64,000 nucleotides of DNA. Source: Candidatus Binatia bacterium. Lineage in GTDB: Bacteria; Desulfobacterota; Binatia; Bin18. Location of the stretch: contig OY761159.2 in assembly GCA_963664395.2 (NCBI GenBank), positions 1,120,001-1,184,000 of the forward strand, in the 5' to 3' direction. Of the stretch, positions 5,861-43,789 are shown piece by piece; within the stretch, counting starts at the first letter, position 1; the number at the start of each line of letters is the position of its first letter. Below the pieces are notes generated by a model. That model was not told the DNA's origin. It saw nothing but the letters and a program-made list of their open reading frames with translations, and did not search any database. The position numbers and the translations under genes were made by a program.

Positions 5861-6256
5861 CTAGAGTAGGTCTGCCCCAGCCTGAGCACAGTCTTCGTCC
5901 TGCTGACCAGTCCCCCCACCAACGCCGCACGCGCCCTCAAGTACCCCGTCGCGCATGATCGCAACGCCCCCCTGGCTGGCGATCATGTGGCCCCCTTCTG
6001 CCGCAACAATCCCACGTACAATCGGGCTGTCGGCCATTTGTTGGAGGGCGCCACTGGGCCGGGCAAAGCCGGCTGAAGCGACGGCCTTACCCTGGGAGCC
6101 GTAGACGCCGGCCCACAAGGCACCATCCATGCGGTTGAAAGCCACGAGGCGTCCCCCAGCGTCACACACGGCTACGCTGATCTTGATGTTGAGCTCTTGC
6201 GCCTTGGCTATGGCCCCGGCAGCAATGCGGTTCGCTTCTTCCAATGTCAGTACCAT
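5861..6256 (-). CDS. GlcG/HbpS family heme-binding protein
   Basis: LTLEEA, VAVCDAGG.L.AF.RMDGA, GGV, GACGVGG...QDE. Confidence 0.9.
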   Translation of the reverse strand: MVLTLEEANRIAAGAIAKAQELNIKISVAVCDAGGRLVAFNRMDGALWAGVYGSQGKAVASAGFARPSGALQQMADSPIVRGIVAAEGGHMIASQGGVAIMRDGVLEGACGVGGGTGQQDEDCAQAGADLL

Positions 6257-6378
6257 ACGGCAAACCCTCCTCTCTCAATATAAAATTGAACTTGCAAATT
6301 ATGGGCAATTTTGCAAACGATGCAGATACAGAAGATAGCAGCGTTTGGCCGAGAAACCCACAGGAAAGGAGCAGTCAT

Positions 6379-7092
6379 ATGAGGGCAGAGAGTCTGGAAT
6401 ATAGAGATGGGGATGTCACGCTCAAGGGATTTGTGGCGCTGGATGACCAGAGCAATCATAAGCGACCCGGGATTCTGGTGATGCCCGAGGCATTTGGATT
6501 GGGCAAGCAGGCCAAGGACCGTGCCCTGCGACTGGCCTCACTCGGCTATGCCGCACTGGCGGGCGACCCGTATGGCAACGGCCTGGAGGTCAGCGATCTT
6601 CAGGAAGCGATTAAACACGCCGGAGCCATACGCGAGGATAACACCAAGTTTCGTCAGCGCATCCGCGCCGGACTCGACGCGCTGACGGCGCTGCCACAGG
6701 TGGACACTGACCGGCTTGTGGTCATGGGCTATTGTATGGGCGGCTCCTGTTCCCTGGAAATGGCGCGAGACGGCGCACCGCTCAAGGGCGTGGTCTCATT
6801 TCACGGCGCCCTGGAAACGCAGAGTCCGGCAGAGCCGGGCAAAGTACAAGCAAAGGTCCTGGTGTGCCACGGTGCGGATGACCCCTTTGTCCCGGTCGAA
6901 CATGTCACTGCCTTTGAAGAGGAGATGACCAAGGCCGGAGTTGACTGGCAGGTCATCAGCTATGGCGGCACGGTGCATAGCTTTACGAATCCGGAGGCCG
7001 ACGGCTCCATAGAAGGCATTTGCTACAATAAGCAGGCGGATGAGCGCTCGTGGCAGGCGATGCAGGCATTCTTTGACGAGATTTTCGCCTAG
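6379..7092 (+). CDS. dienelactone hydrolase family protein
   Basis: MPEAFGL, GYCMGG, SFHG, HGADD, HSFTNP; start moved to ATG 6379 after AAAGGAG. Confidence 0.9.
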   Translation: MRAESLEYRDGDVTLKGFVALDDQSNHKRPGILVMPEAFGLGKQAKDRALRLASLGYAALAGDPYGNGLEVSDLQEAIKHAGAIREDNTKFRQRIRAGLDALTALPQVDTDRLVVMGYCMGGSCSLEMARDGAPLKGVVSFHGALETQSPAEPGKVQAKVLVCHGADDPFVPVEHVTAFEEEMTKAGVDWQVISYGGTVHSFTNPEADGSIEGICYNKQADERSWQAMQAFFDEIFA

Positions 7093-7104: not shown

Positions 7105-7755
7105 CTAAATTTCATACACATCGACCTCTTCACGTCCAGCCATCCATTCCGTCTCGCGGTGCTGGACCTGGACGTGAAGGCGCGAGGCCGCAAGCTGTTC
7201 CAAAAATTTTTCGACACCCTCCCGTCGCGGGTCGCCAAAAAAAGCCCTGCCGCCCGTTTTAAGCGTGGCCGCCAAGAGCTTATACATCCAGCCGCCATCG
7301 ACCGCCTCGTACAGCACGTCAGCACCGACAAGGACATCGTACTGGCCAAGCTGCCGCACGCTGTTCTCATCCAGCCAGCAGCGGCACAGTTCCTGAACAC
7401 GGGGGACAGTATTGAGTTCACAATTGCGCTGGACCAGCCGCAGAGCCTCAGGAATATGGTCAAGCGCGGTGACCTGCGCGCCCAGCGAAGACAGCACCAC
7501 ACTCTCCAGCCCGACCCCACAGCCAATCACCAAGGCATGCTTCTCGCGCCACCACTCGGCCGGATAGGTCGAGGCAAGATACTGCGACAGGGCGAGGCTC
7601 GCCGGCCAGGCCAGATGCCAGTAGTCGTTCGCGCCACAGTACGGACAGCGGGAAAATTCGGGCTGGACGTTGCGGAGTTCAATCAGACGCACGACGAGCT
7701 GCGGCGTGACCCGATACGGGAGAATGCTTTCTTCGAAGAGTGGACGTTCGCTCAT
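7105..7755 (-). CDS. class I SAM-dependent methyltransferase (Methyltransf_16-like)
   Basis: YW.LAWPASLAL, IGCGVG, LDW, GADVLYE, DPRR. Confidence 0.85.
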   Translation of the reverse strand: MSERPLFEESILPYRVTPQLVVRLIELRNVQPEFSRCPYCGANDYWHLAWPASLALSQYLASTYPAEWWREKHALVIGCGVGLESVVLSSLGAQVTALDHIPEALRLVQRNCELNTVPRVQELCRCWLDENSVRQLGQYDVLVGADVLYEAVDGGWMYKLLAATLKTGGRAFFGDPRREGVEKFLEQLAASRLHVQVQHRETEWMAGREEVDVYEI

Positions 7756-7969
7756 ACCCCAGCGATCCTTTCACGCAGGACACGAAGACACAGTTCTGTC
7801 TTTCCCCCCTACGGCTCTCAGCTCCTCTCTATTATCAAGAAAAAGGCATGTAGTGAGAGATACGTTTTCACTTGACAGCTCGTATGACAGTGCATTAGGA
7901 CGGAGGCACGAGGAAATCTCTGGGAGTACACACCATTAAGTAAGAACGTTTGCCGTAAGGAGGGACACT

Positions 7970-8566
7970 ATGGCACGGCTCAGTCTCGTTGACCGCAAGC
8001 AGATGAGTCCACAGTATGCGCAACTGGTGGAACGGGTAAAGGACGCGGACGGCTATGTCAATTTTTTGAGCATGATGGCCCACCGCCAGGAGGTCGTTGA
8101 GCCCATGTGGCGAGCCTATGTTGACATGTTCGAGGGCGGCATCGTCGAGCCACCACTCAAGGAGCTGGTGCGTATCAAAATTGCCTATCTGAACGGGTGT
8201 TTATTTTGACAGGGCTTTCGCTATGCATCGGTGATGCAAAAAGGACTGACCGAAGAAAAAATCGCCCAACTCGAGGATTATGAAAACAGCCCCGCCTTTA
8301 CTCCCCGCGAGAAGAGCGCCCTCCGCTATGCCGAAAAGCTGGCCGTTGATGTCGACGCTATGGATAATGACGAGTTCTTTAGCGGGCTACAGCAACATTT
8401 TACCGACGCCGAGATCGTGGAGCTCGGCATTGTGATTGGATATGACATCGCCTTTGGTCGGCTGCTGCGCGTGTTTGACGCCGACCCGAAGGTGTGTGAA
8501 GTCCCGGAGCATCGGGAGGTTGGTATAGACGTTAGCCAATCCCCCGCTCTGTCCGCAGCAAAGTAG
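7970..8566 (+). CDS. AhpD/carboxymuconolactone decarboxylase-like peroxidase, putative selenoprotein (CxxU), 198 aa
   Basis: ORFs 7970-8209 and 8231-8566 are in the same frame, separated only by TGA 8207-8209 in N-G-C-L-F-*; both halves are CMD-like (LKELVRIKIA; FTPREKSALRYAE..HFTDAEIVEL); SECIS-like hairpin follows. Confidence 0.82.
8210..8248 (+). promoter_or_regulatory. bacterial SECIS-like hairpin
   Basis: upper stem TGCATC (8224-8229)/GATGCA (8233-8238) with GGT loop 20 nt after the UGA; lower pairing CAG/CTG and CTTT/AAAG. Confidence 0.72.
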
Positions 8567-8576
8567 TGAGTGCTAC

Positions 8577-8610
8577 GGGTGGGCCAGCAGACGGCCCACC
8601 CTCTTCTCTT
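8577..8610 (+). terminator. intrinsic terminator
   Basis: GGGTGGGCC-7nt-GGCCCACCC followed by TCTTCTCTT, right after stop 8566. Confidence 0.7.
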
Positions 8611-8655
8611 GGCTAGCTTACCGGAACGTCTCGGCGCTGTCGTCAGACAGCGCCC

Positions 8656-9897
8656 TCAGATCCGTTCGATAATCGTGGCAATGCCCATGCCGCCGCCGAT
8701 ACACATGGTGACCAGCCCGGTGGTTTTATCCTGACGTTCGAGTTCGTCGAGGACGGTTCCTATGAGCATGCTGCCGGTTGCGCCGAGCGGATGACCGAGA
8801 GCGATCGCCCCACCGTTGACGTTAACCGTGTCCGGGTCCATGTCACAGCCGCGCATGGTTTTCAGGGGGACAACCGCAAACGCCTCGTTGATCTCAATCA
8901 GGTCAATATCAGTGATTGTCATACCGGCTTTCTTGAGCACCTTTTTGGTAGCCGGAACCGGTGCGGTCAACATAATAATAGGCTCATCCCCCGCGGTTGC
9001 GGTGGCGACAATCCGAGCGCGCGGTTTCATACCGTGGCTGCGGGCATACTCCGGAGAGGTAAGCAGCAGGGCTCCCGCACCGTCAACGATGCCTGAAGAA
9101 TTGCCGGCGTGATGGACATGGTTGATCTCTTGCACATCCGTGTAGCGTGACAGCGCCTTTTCGTCGAAACTCAGCGTGTCGCCCTTTTGGACATACTTTC
9201 CCAGTTCCGCAAAGGAAGGGGGCAGTTGGCCAAGCCCTTCAAGCGTCGTGCCTGGTCGCGGGTATTCATCGTGTTCGAGGATCACGTTGCCTTCAGCATC
9301 GCGCACGGGGATCAGGCTCTTTTTCAGACGGCCCTCTTTGTGAGCACGGGCATAGCGCTGCTGGCTCGACAGCGCGAATGTGTCACAATCTTCGCGGCCA
9401 AACCCCTCTCGGGTGGCAATCAAATCACCTGAGATGCCTTGCTGTACAAGCGGATGGAGTTGGCGCAGATGGCGATTATGGCCGTCGATCCCACCCCGGT
9501 CCGCATTCATCGGCACGCGGGACATGGACTCCACACCACCGGCAACCACCACGTCCTGCTCGCCGGACTTGATGCCCATAGCCGCAAAATTCACCGCCTG
9601 CTGTCCTGAGCCGCAGAAACGGTTAATCGTGACACCCGTCGAATCGTTCGGCCACTCGGCTGCCAGCACAGACATCCGGGCGATGCACATCGCCTGTTCA
9701 CCATACGCAGTCACACAGCCCACCACCACGTCTTCAACGTCAAGCGGGTCCAAGTGGTTCCGTTCTTTTGTGGCATTCAGGACTTGCGCCATAAGCTCCT
9801 GGGGATGGAGTCCTGCCAGCGCCCCGTCTTTCTTGCCCCGCCCACGCGGGGTGCGAACTGCATCAATAATCCAGGCTTCGCCCATGACTTCCTCCAT
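8656..9897 (-). CDS. acetyl-CoA C-acyltransferase (thiolase)
   Basis: [36 protein letters not shown]. Confidence 0.95.
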
Positions 9898-13389: not shown

Positions 13390-14739
13390 TTGAGCCCCAT
13401 ACCGATGCCAATAGCGACTGAGACGCTTCCCCATACGAGCGGCGCCCGGAATAACCAGAACAAGCTCCGGCCCGAAGACCAGCCGGTTCACGACTGGTAT
13501 CGGTTTGTACTGTCATTCCCACCCCACTTGGTCCGTGACTATCTTGGACGGTTTGGCGTTCGCCCCTCCGAGACGGTTCTCGATCCATTCTGCGGAACCG
13601 GCACCACATTGGTTGAGTGTAAGAAACTCGGCATTCGGAGTGTCGGAATCGAGTCGAACCCCATGGCGCACCTCGCAAGCTCGGTAAAAGTCGATTGGTC
13701 AGTCGATCGTACCGGACTTCTGGACTATGCCGAGCAGGTTGTCACGTCAGCGAGAAAAACTCTGGAACAACAGGGCATAAGTGAATGGACCGGCCTCCCG
13801 CTGTTTACCGCTACTAGACCGGAACACTCACCGCTGGCCGAACTGCGTCCTGAGCAGTTAAAATTGCTATTAAAGGACTCAATCAGCCCTCTCCCCCTGC
13901 ACAAGACCTTAATGTTGCTGGACGCAATCGACCGACAGGGCGACCGGCAGATGCAGCAATACGGACGGCTCGCACTGGCCAGTGCGCTGGTACAGCGTAT
14001 CGGCAACCTGAAGTTTGGCCCGGAAGTAGGGGTTGGGAGGATGAAGGATGACGCTCCGGTCTTCGATGCCTGGCTTGACCGTGTCCGGTCCATGGCAAGC
14101 AACATTGGTCTCGTCGGAGACCGAGCTGACGTGACCGCCCGAGTCATTAAGGCCGACTCCCGACAGATCGGCCAGATTCTGGAGCCGCAATCGGTCGATG
14201 TGGTCATCACGTCCCCGCCATACCCAAACGAGAAAGACTATACGCGCACGACGCGCTTGGAGTCCGTCATCCTTGGATTGATACGCAACAAACAGGACTT
14301 GCGGGCGCTGAAACAGGGCTTGGTCAGATCCAATACGAGGGGTGTGTACAAATCGGATACGGACGATCTTGAGGTTGCGGACAATGTCGAAATACGAAAC
14401 ATCGCCGAGGCCATTGAGCAACGTCGGGTTGCGTTGGGAAAAACCTCCGGCTTCGAGCGGCTCTATCCACGCGTCACCCGGCTGTACTTTGGCGGTATGG
14501 CACGACATCTGGCTTCCCTCCGGCCCGTCCTCAAACCGGGGGCGCGACTCGCTTATGTGGTGGGCGACCAGGCGTCCTATCTGCGGGTCATGATTCGGAC
14601 AGGGCGTCTGCTGGCCGAACTGGCGCAATCGTTGAACTACACTGTTGCTGGCATTGACCTGTTTCGGACCCGGCTGTCAACGGTGACCGGCGAGCAGCTT
14701 CGGGAAGAAGTCGTTCTGCTCGAATGGCCGGGTCACTGA
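13390..14739 (+). CDS. amino-DNA methyltransferase (probably N4-cytosine) of a Type II R-M system
   Basis: VHDWYRF, motif I LDPFCGTGTT, motif IV VITSPPY, LKPGA...VVGD. Confidence 0.88.
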   Translation: MSPIPMPIATETLPHTSGARNNQNKLRPEDQPVHDWYRFVLSFPPHLVRDYLGRFGVRPSETVLDPFCGTGTTLVECKKLGIRSVGIESNPMAHLASSVKVDWSVDRTGLLDYAEQVVTSARKTLEQQGISEWTGLPLFTATRPEHSPLAELRPEQLKLLLKDSISPLPLHKTLMLLDAIDRQGDRQMQQYGRLALASALVQRIGNLKFGPEVGVGRMKDDAPVFDAWLDRVRSMASNIGLVGDRADVTARVIKADSRQIGQILEPQSVDVVITSPPYPNEKDYTRTTRLESVILGLIRNKQDLRALKQGLVRSNTRGVYKSDTDDLEVADNVEIRNIAEAIEQRRVALGKTSGFERLYPRVTRLYFGGMARHLASLRPVLKPGARLAYVVGDQASYLRVMIRTGRLLAELAQSLNYTVAGIDLFRTRLSTVTGEQLREEVVLLEWPGH

Positions 14740-15554
14740 CCGAGAGGGGGTACGCTATTCCGTCCCGGAACCGCTATGTGGCGATCATTGAGGCGATTTT
14801 TCACGCCAAGTATCAACCTGGACAACGGGCGGTGGCTTTCGAGCGAGAAGATATCGTCACGTTCGCATCCAGACTGAATATCCAGCTTCCCAAAAATCTG
14901 GGCGACTTGGTCTACAGCTTCAGATATCGAACTGCGCTCCCGTCGAGCATTCTTGCCGAGGCTCCTGCAGGAGAAACCTGGATCATTCGTCCCGCAGGAC
15001 GGAGTCGATACCAATTTGTCTTGGTGGCCGACAGGCCGCTCATTCCTAACCCGAACCTTGCGGTGACGAAGGTCCCCGACGCGACTCCCGGAATCATCGC
15101 GAAATATGCGTTCAATGATGAGCAAGCTGTCCTGGCTCGTATTCGTTACAACCGATTGATCGACATCTTCTTGGGGATAGTCTGCTATTCGCTCCAAAAC
15201 CATCTGAGGACGACTGTGCCTCAAATGGGCCAAGTAGAGACGGATGAAATATACGTGGGTGTGGACAAGAGCGGCTCTCATTACGTCGTACCTGTCCAGG
15301 CCAAGGGGGAGAAGGATACGCTCAGCAGAGTTCAGATTGAGCAAGACATAGGGCTGTGCGCCGATAGACTCCCGTCTCTGATCTGCCGGCCCGTTGGAGC
15401 GCAGCCCATGCGGGACAACCTGATTGTGCTCTTTGAGTTTGAGCACGCGAGTGGCGATGTGAGAGTAGTTTCGGAAAAGCATTATCAACTGGTGCCACCG
15501 GACGGCGTAACCGCCGAAGACCTGACCGCCTATCGACAACGACTGTCGGATTGA
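14724..15554 (+). CDS. putative Type II restriction endonuclease (PD-(D/E)xK-like)
   Basis: overlaps the MTase; QVETDEIY...PVQAKG catalytic-like motif. Confidence 0.72.
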   Translation: MAGSLTERGYAIPSRNRYVAIIEAIFHAKYQPGQRAVAFEREDIVTFASRLNIQLPKNLGDLVYSFRYRTALPSSILAEAPAGETWIIRPAGRSRYQFVLVADRPLIPNPNLAVTKVPDATPGIIAKYAFNDEQAVLARIRYNRLIDIFLGIVCYSLQNHLRTTVPQMGQVETDEIYVGVDKSGSHYVVPVQAKGEKDTLSRVQIEQDIGLCADRLPSLICRPVGAQPMRDNLIVLFEFEHASGDVRVVSEKHYQLVPPDGVTAEDLTAYRQRLSD

Positions 15555-43135: not shown

Positions 43136-43789
43136 TTACTGGAGAATTCTGACGGCCTCACCGTCTTGAACCAGCACGGTCGGGGCCATCCCCACAAACA
43201 GTCCGGTGCCCACGACGCCGGGGATCGACAGAATTTTTTGTTCAAATTCGGCAGGCTTGGCAATCGGACCGATTGCGCAGTCAATAATGGCGTTGCCGTT
43301 ATCGGAGACAAACGCACCCGATTCGGTCTGCCGCGGGGTTGGCTCGCAGGACAAGGCGCGCAGACGCCGACAGCAGGCCGCGACCCCAAACGGCACGACT
43401 TCAACTGGCAGCCTGCCCCGCTCTCCGAGCACGGACACCAGCTTTTCAGTGCCCACCAGAACGATGAATTTTTCGGCCGCGGCAGCTACTATTTTCTCGC
43501 GTACCATGGCACCGCCATAGCCTTTGATGAGGTTCAGGCTGAGATCAACCTCGTCTGCACCATCAACGGCAATATCAATGATATCGACTGCGTCAAAAGT
43601 CGTGAGGGGAATGCCAAGCTCCTGGGCGAGAGCCATCGTTACTTGAGATGTTGGGAGCCCACGAATACGTAAGCCGGCGCGCACCCGGGCGCCAAGCGCA
43701 CGCACGAAGGCGGTCGCGGCCCGGCCCGTGCCCAGGCCGACGACATCTCCGTCTTTCACAAATTCGAGCGCGCGTTCAGCGATAGTCAT
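43136..43789 (-). CDS. rpiA: ribose-5-phosphate isomerase A
   Basis: VGLGTG, DGADEVD, LIKGYGGA..REKIVA, PVEV, SDNGN, GVV..GLF. Confidence 0.95.
   Translation of the reverse strand: MTIAERALEFVKDGDVVGLGTGRAATAFVRALGARVRAGLRIRGLPTSQVTMALAQELGIPLTTFDAVDIIDIAVDGADEVDLSLNLIKGYGGAMVREKIVAAAAEKFIVLVGTEKLVSVLGERGRLPVEVVPFGVAACCRRLRALSCEPTPRQTESGAFVSDNGNAIIDCAIGPIAKPAEFEQKILSIPGVVGTGLFVGMAPTVLVQDGEAVRILQ

Follow-up and report, generated by a model that had tools for sequence, protein, structure and literature searches.

The segment at positions 7970–8566 on the plus strand of the window, by which we mean the whole 64,000-nucleotide stretch analysed, is best explained as one stand-alone gene in which the UGA at codon 80 would be recoded as selenocysteine (Sec). 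Its predicted product is a thiol/selenol oxidoreductase of the AhpD/CMD fold, and we put the probability of this reading at roughly 0.88. Sec read-through at codon 80, taken by itself, appears close to certain from the comparison of related genes.

The interrupted reading frame and its protein

Translation of the window revealed an ATG at 7970, 79 codons, a TGA at 8207–8209, 118 further codons and a TAG. As an earlier note on this DNA had pointed out, the two open reading frames are in the same frame and parted solely by that TGA. The protein context across it is NGCLF*QGFRYAS (the asterisk marks the TGA), and the predicted read-through protein of 198 amino acids contains the motif E65...C77-x-x-U80-x-x-x-R84 plus C176. 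A Shine-Dalgarno sequence, AAGGAGG (7957–7963, plus strand), is located 6 nt 5' of the ATG. The duplex with the anti-Shine-Dalgarno sequence amounts to −12.6 kcal/mol at ATG 7970, compared with −2.6 at the internal GTG 8231 and +1.9 at ATG 8234. The single ribosome-binding site proposed before the first half is therefore present, with no Shine-Dalgarno sequence at the internal starts. The terminator proposed after the second half is also there, as an intrinsic-terminator-like hairpin and tail (8577–8611, hairpin 8577–8601, plus strand) between the gene and the convergent thiolase gene, but it was recognised by consensus match and is weak evidence by itself, since shuffled sequence yields 0.8 ± 0.9 such sites.

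The read-through protein scored 42 bits against the Pfam CMD domain PF02627 (gathering cut-off 23); the N-half gave no CMD match, and the C-half reached 17.2. With this score above the cut-off and the CxxU motif, it is a predicted member of the known AhpD/CMD CxxU kind of selenoprotein. Residue 80 faces Cys51 of PA0269 (NGCAYC) in pairwise alignment and also aligns with the Cys of NGCLFCQ homologs, which bears out the claim that the TGA occupies the place of the second Cys of the AhpD-family CxxC. In the first two homolog searches, which yielded 224 aligned segments, 167 segments have Cys at column 80, 27 have a gap there and 30 another residue (Trp in five). At column 84, Arg occurs in 150 segments and His in 17. 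Of 251 matches to a profile search, 120 were listed, and 118 of these were new, comprising 96 full-length proteins and 22 halves. Cys stands opposite the UGA, in a C-x-x-C-x-x-x-R motif, in 93 of the 96 full-length homologs among the matches listed, and the remaining three have Trp at column 80. Stored proteins at least 70% identical to the read-through protein numbered 15 of 320, and none of the 15 spans residue 80. The databases hold close copies as pieces, a clean case of systematic mis-annotation, which supports the proposal of one 198-residue CxxU protein split by gene callers.

An AlphaFold model, with Cys placed at residue 80 (pLDDT 92.2, pTM 0.83), predicts the all-helical AhpD/CMD fold and contains the helix-hairpin with Glu and CxxC, as E65, C77 and U80. 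AhpD-like structures matched the model with Z of 16–19, among them 6k40 (Z 18.8, rmsd 2.7, 173 aligned), PA0269 (2ijc, Z 17.1) and S. pneumoniae AhpD (6E8L, Z 16.4, 14% identity). The Bmp8 debrominase (6OHI) also ranked near the top (Z 17.0, rmsd 2.8, 169 aligned, 14% identity), and M. tuberculosis AhpD (1lw1) gave Z 10.2. No solved structure with an Arg-type site was present among the structural alignments viewed. In the protein tree, the full-length database protein nearest to the Binatia clade, P0058, keeps the first Cys; it has a 6-residue insertion at the position of the second Cys/Sec and neither residue there.

Codon 80 in related loci and translation past the UGA

The first broad alignment contained no stretch conserved enough for a genome scan. 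The GTDB genome scan matched 105 stretches, of which 83 were confirmed and 80 loci kept. The closest 15 loci (80–97% identity) are mostly labelled Candidatus Binatia, where the closest relatives of the window gene appear to reside by sequence; the others come from Binataceae, other deltaproteobacteria-like MAGs, uncultured Gammaproteobacteria/Pseudomonadales and Sphingomonadaceae. Codon 80, the predicted Sec80, is TGA in 75 of the 80 loci, TGC in four and TGG in one, counts that do not represent independent events, as the loci are related by descent. None of the 15 close relatives lacks the TGA, and another 60 loci, as remote as about 38% identity, have it too; in 74 of these 75 the frame is open to either side of it, as had been expected of a genuine Sec codon. 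The start codon lies exactly 79 codons upstream of the UGA in 74 of these 75 loci, the exception being the frameshifted L080. Intact genes have one internal TGA apiece, at the Cys column, and the stop at codon 80 of the TGA loci is never TAA or TAG (75/75 TGA). The first Cys of the CxxU motif, Cys77 (8198–8200, plus strand), is Cys in all 75.

The idea that the window holds a pseudogene or a sequencing error might draw on the decay of two of the 80 relatives (L023 and L080). It is refuted by the conservation of the TGA across the 15 close and 60 more distant loci, with frames intact on both sides in nearly all of them, and we assign it only the slightest probability. L023 (10001–10600) is a decayed copy in a Binatia chromosome with the gene order of the window. 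It has several frameshifts, TGG at codon 80 and a broken hairpin; it is a pseudogene and could mark a loss of Sec use. The database fragment P0129 matches it by eye. L080 (840–1410) is a frameshifted copy in which the TGA is kept and the hairpin weakened. The records labelled Enterobacteriaceae (L080, L014) and Klebsiella (L048) carry genes resembling those of Binatia, deltaproteobacteria-like or Pseudomonadales MAGs, and on this resemblance their taxon labels look doubtful.

In a protein tree, the TGA loci were scattered over several clades, TGA and hairpin together. This tree was a quick version with long-branch warnings, and L023 and L080 were left out of it, so we draw no direction of Sec/Cys change. 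One mostly Cys-type clade (L073, L075, L077–L079) has a single member with TGA plus SECIS, L075, which is sister to the TGC member L073 (SH-aLRT 88); the two appear to form a natural Sec/Cys pair, and L075 has no C-terminal Cys. One Binatota MAG contains two paralogs (L015 and L033), which share about 80% and 45% identity with the window protein and differ in SECIS register, with a GGU loop at +21 and a GGA loop at +19. A second, distant AhpD-like gene with CxxU (NGCRY-UGA) is located at 15178–15726 of L058 on the minus strand, about 5 kb from the first. Its hairpin has the same geometry, with an 8-bp stem and a GGC loop, and its product passes TIGR00778 (29.8 against a cut-off of 27.8).

We considered whether the gene is truly split, with a 79-residue N-half ending at the UGA and a C-half restarting at GTG 8231 or ATG 8234, the hairpin controlling re-initiation. 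Databases do store the halves as separate proteins (P0055; P0002–P0009), and ATG is found at codon 89 in 71 of the 75 TGA loci. However, Arg84 (8219–8221, plus strand), which lies between the UGA and any restart, is Arg in 75 of 75 TGA loci through five different codons. An invariant residue written with five codons is selected at the amino-acid level and argues that the codons past the UGA are translated. Where ATG89 has become ACG or AAG, its pairing partner has changed too; Met89 is lost in four of the 75 loci, and codons 81–95 of two loci offer no in-frame start. The absence of Shine-Dalgarno sequences at the internal starts and the invariable use of TGA as the stop also speak against a split, and in the AlphaFold model the break would cut the active-site helix H78-82. 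A split gene is thus very improbable.

We give an equally small chance to the UGA being decoded as Trp, Cys or Gly, whether by leaky read-through or under a changed genetic code. This would fit the Trp at column 80 in three of the 96 full-length proteins listed, in P0057 and in L023. A changed code is made unlikely by TGA serving as the ordinary terminal stop in 41 of the 75 genes at these same TGA loci, and within the window TGA ends 30 of 65 long non-overlapping open reading frames (a crude set). The single internal TGA of each intact gene, placed at the Cys column, and the decayed state of the TGG copy L023, frameshifted several times, point the same way. The Trp-bearing database proteins, namely the full-length P0212, P0232 and P0233 (three of the 96 listed) and the degenerate fragment P0057, would on their face count against Sec. 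P0232 has a second Trp at the family's terminal TGA site and runs on into the downstream domain of the next gene, which suggests, from the protein alone, a table-4 gene call. In all three full-length proteins Trp is probably a TGA read under table 4, and they may possibly have a different SECIS type; the stretch past the Sec column is remodelled in them, and longer in two.

The downstream hairpin and the Sec machinery

Sec insertion at codon 80 would call on the hairpin described in the earlier note, with a G-containing loop 20 nt past the UGA. It is present at 8224–8238 on the plus strand, with arms TGCATC (8224–8229) and GATGCA (8233–8238) around a GGT loop (8230–8232), and would represent the upper stem-loop of a bacterial SECIS element. 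It folds with 6 bp and a GGU loop at −10.0 kcal/mol. The further lower-stem pairing that had been proposed did not hold up: it appears in the minimum free energy fold and is missing from the centroid, and codons 81, 83 and 84 vary freely at the third position (entropy 1.3–1.8 bits; 0.42 for codon 82).

On the window sequence alone, the hairpin by itself is weak evidence. Folding energy was discarded as evidence, as the 60-nt fold gave no signal against shuffles (z = 0.01). UGA80 fits the generic bacterial SECIS model in our own implementation (not bSECISearch) of the relaxed bSECIS model, as set out in PMC13188914, and 15% of random TGAs likewise pass. We rejected this model too as evidence because of its permissiveness, 313 of the 2085 TGA triplets in the window passing it. 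When a GG triloop at +21 and at least six stem pairs were both required, a strict geometry, two of the 2085 remained, UGA80 and one out-of-frame site. The second site, at 43536 on the minus strand, is inside a gene at 43136–43789 that looks like ribose-5-phosphate isomerase from its sequence; the TGA there is out of frame, so that hairpin is attributed to chance. An Rfam scan of the window returned no match. A further 36 TGA-plus-hairpin candidates in the window and loci, nine of which fit a loose redox-motif pattern, were rejected because none was protein-like by eye.

Conservation across relatives sets the hairpin at codon 80 apart from chance. At +21, 72 of the 75 TGA loci have a GGN triloop closed by a stem of 6 bp or longer, compared with none of the four TGC loci; in the remaining three TGA loci the hairpin has 7 bp and its loop, GGA, comes two bases sooner. 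The hairpin is conserved in relatives, as the earlier note would require. Stems in the loci that keep it are 6–9 bp long. One search pattern overlaps the 3' arm of the hairpin and could bias these counts; among loci matching only the non-overlapping pattern, the stem is present in 25 of 25 TGA loci and in none of four TGC loci. Covariation was examined in 77 rows (71 distinct), shifted hairpins included. Pairing was kept in 93.3%, and 29 cells were changed on both sides; shuffles gave 4.1, with none of 500 reaching that number, and slid registers 0–4. Synonymous sites in the stem-loop are frozen, with TCG at codon 87 in 73 of 73, GCG at codon 88 in 60 of 60 and CCA at codon 86 in 52 of 55. In comparison, 86 other four-fold columns had a mean of 1.44 bits, the two lowest being 0.23 and 0.42. 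The comparison of sequences strongly suggests that the hairpin is under selection at the RNA level.

The hairpin had been called an fdhF-like SECIS, which holds for its general position. Like the E. coli fdhF element, it is a short stem-loop in the coding region with a G-rich loop, and in the Binatia clade a UGCA/UGCA stem starts at an equal distance from the UGA. It differs in loop type and detail. A side-by-side fold with E. coli fdhF showed a GGUC tetraloop at 18 nt and a bulged U below it in fdhF, whereas the element here has a GGN triloop at 20 nt, no bulged U and no conserved lower stem. The position equivalent to the bulged U is paired in 55 of the 71 distinct rows; in the window it is an A. 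The GGUC loop and the bulged U are important for SelB binding in E. coli. The generic bacterial model describes the element better than the fdhF type does.

The earlier note took the selenoprotein to imply that the genome encodes SelA, SelB, SelC and SelD. We found no selA, selB, selD or tRNA-Sec gene in the window or the 80 flanking regions, which cover 1.34 Mb in all. In this sequence, tblastn with E. coli SelA, SelB and SelD gave no match, and the sole tRNA found was one tRNA-Asn. A tblastn search with E. coli FdhF matched three loci, at distantly FdhF-like (24–26%) molybdopterin oxidoreductase genes on the minus strand (L071, 7935–9857; L079, 8338–9846; L026, 99–1580). All three are long open frames with no internal stop, and those of L071 and L079 are divergent and directly upstream of the CMD gene. 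According to the BSepDB paper, 11 Binatia genomes were among those surveyed (PMC13326102). Our literature search, whose coverage lay mostly outside subscription journals, showed among the matches listed no paper on Sec in Binatota/Binatia or on this subfamily.

Active site, proposed function and family placement

As described in PMC3141380, the proton relay of AhpD consists of Glu118, Cys130, His132, Cys133 and His137. The window protein shares with M. tuberculosis AhpD and PA0269 the fold, the two-helix hairpin and the equal spacing of Glu and CxxC/U. Aligned to PA0269, its Glu65 (8162–8164, plus strand) is the equivalent of AhpD Glu118 and PA0269 Glu36, and it is Glu in 74 of 74 intact TGA relatives. 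It departs from them in that Sec replaces the second Cys, a further, C-terminal Cys is present and ahpC is not a neighbour. The relay His (His137/His55), four residues past the second Cys, is replaced by Arg84 in 74 of 74 intact TGA relatives, and AhpD His132 (Tyr50 in PA0269) corresponds to Phe79, which is Thr in 57 of 75 relatives. Since Cys homologs share the Arg, Arg84 is a trait of the subfamily and not an adaptation to Sec. The C-terminal Cys176 (8495–8497, plus strand), a possible relay residue, is kept in 71 of the 74 intact TGA relatives; of the three misses, one is a contig end. Among CxxC homologs of 140–240 amino acids, a C-terminal Cys is present in 69 of 110 Arg-type versus none of 12 His-type proteins, by a rough pattern match in related sequences. 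S. pneumoniae AhpD (6E8L) and Bmp8 (6OHI) have the same long AhpD-like fold, and the former reportedly has a three-cysteine site, to whose third Cys Cys176 may correspond.

We propose that SelB would bind the in-frame stem-loop, 20 nt past UGA80, and recode this codon as selenocysteine. In AhpD it is the second Cys that attacks; here the selenolate of Sec80 would be the nucleophile, held or stabilised by Arg84 where AhpD has its His base. Sec80 would attack an oxidised substrate, most likely a hydroperoxide, or else a disulfide on a partner, Cys77 would resolve it to a selenenyl-sulfide, and Cys176 may relay the oxidation to a reductant of the cell. For both Arg84 and Cys176, we infer the role. 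On the conserved motif, a redox enzyme using C77/U80 is highly probable. Of the name peroxidase given in the earlier note, the fold, the Glu and the CxxU stand, but with Arg84 in place of the catalytic His the peroxidase activity is likewise something we infer. Reduction of peroxide, as the physiological substrate, is likelier than any other single function, at about even odds.

A selenoprotein whose E/CxxU/R/C-terminal-Cys site carries out other chemistry, such as Bmp8-like reductive dehalogenation, disulfide or sulfoxide reduction, or binding of a soft metal or metalloid, has somewhat poorer odds; it would dispute the function alone and not the recoding. The invariant Arg at the His137 position, the C-terminal Cys confined to Arg-type homologs in the count above and the place of Bmp8 among the best structural matches favour it, as does PA0269, which is a weak peroxidase in spite of its full relay (PMC3141380). 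A selenolate would have no need of a His base, however, and no conserved pathway neighbours hint at another substrate. Sec in CxxU motifs is moreover mostly ascribed to redox roles (PMC13188914).

Monocistronic, the gene is flanked by a divergent methyltransferase-like gene (7105–7755, minus strand) and the convergent thiolase gene (8656–9897, minus strand). Together with genes for a dienelactone hydrolase (6244–7092, plus strand) and an HbpS-like haem protein (5861–6256, minus strand), all named by Pfam on the relatives' copies, these are kept in most close Binatia relatives and are not co-transcribed with the selenoprotein gene. Neither ahpC nor a reductase gene is a conserved neighbour in the 80 loci. 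In a survey with Pfam run on 64 of the 70 largest clusters, singletons left out, neighbours were conserved within close clades only, so the context gives no substrate. Elsewhere in the window, 13390–15554 on the plus strand holds what looks from its sequence like a DNA methyltransferase gene and, after it, a 276-aa gene that overlaps it; the two may be a restriction-modification pair.

AhpD-like and CMD-domain selenoproteins with CxxU were predicted in Sargasso Sea data in 2005 (PMC1088965) and again in the GOS data, where 299 AhpD-like 1 sequences placed them among the commonest selenoproteins of ocean metagenomes (PMC2398784), and a 2026 review lists them as high-confidence predictions (PMC13188914). 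The window protein resembles the predicted AhpD-like (COG2128/TIGR01926) and CMD-like (PF02627) families in its CMD domain, a CxxU with Sec second and an in-frame SECIS. It scored 39.8 against the TIGR01926 cut-off of 81.8, however. Its subfamily may overlap with the Sargasso and GOS members or with BSepDB entries. For TIGR00778 the score was 14.5 (cut-off 27.8). The best NCBIfam match was NF053654 (GroundWater_YciW, YciW-related (seleno)protein), aligned over residues 1–167 on 1–170 of 179, but at 85.4 bits compared with an equivalog cut-off of 310, and the 27 relatives scanned all stayed at or below 97.5 bits. The GSU3128 family NF041047 and the AhpD-related selenoproteins NF041238 gave no match to the read-through protein (P0001) at E up to 0.1, and relatives reached at most 26.2 on NF041047 (cut-off 110). 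Two of the 27 relatives passed any NCBIfam cut-off, both on the small TIGR00778 domain, the distant paralog of L058 and the Cys protein P0061. By these scores, the window protein appears to be outside every curated NCBIfam family, below all cut-offs.

An uncatalogued selenoprotein subfamily, below all NCBIfam cut-offs, with an E/CxxU/Arg/C-terminal-Cys site, a mechanism other than the His relay and a substrate other than peroxide is a more speculative and on balance unlikely reading. Its range would take in Binatia, other deltaproteobacteria-like MAGs and uncultured Pseudomonadales, nearly all of it stored as split halves in databases.

AhpD/CMD selenoproteins with CxxU are already known, and the window gene leaves that known biology unchanged. 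What it adds is a gene in a branch that databases store as pieces, with a predicted active site of the Arg type and three chalcogens, and it extends predicted Sec use to Candidatus Binatia. The natural Sec/Cys sister pairs and the covarying GGN-triloop SECIS would be useful for tests of SelB specificity.
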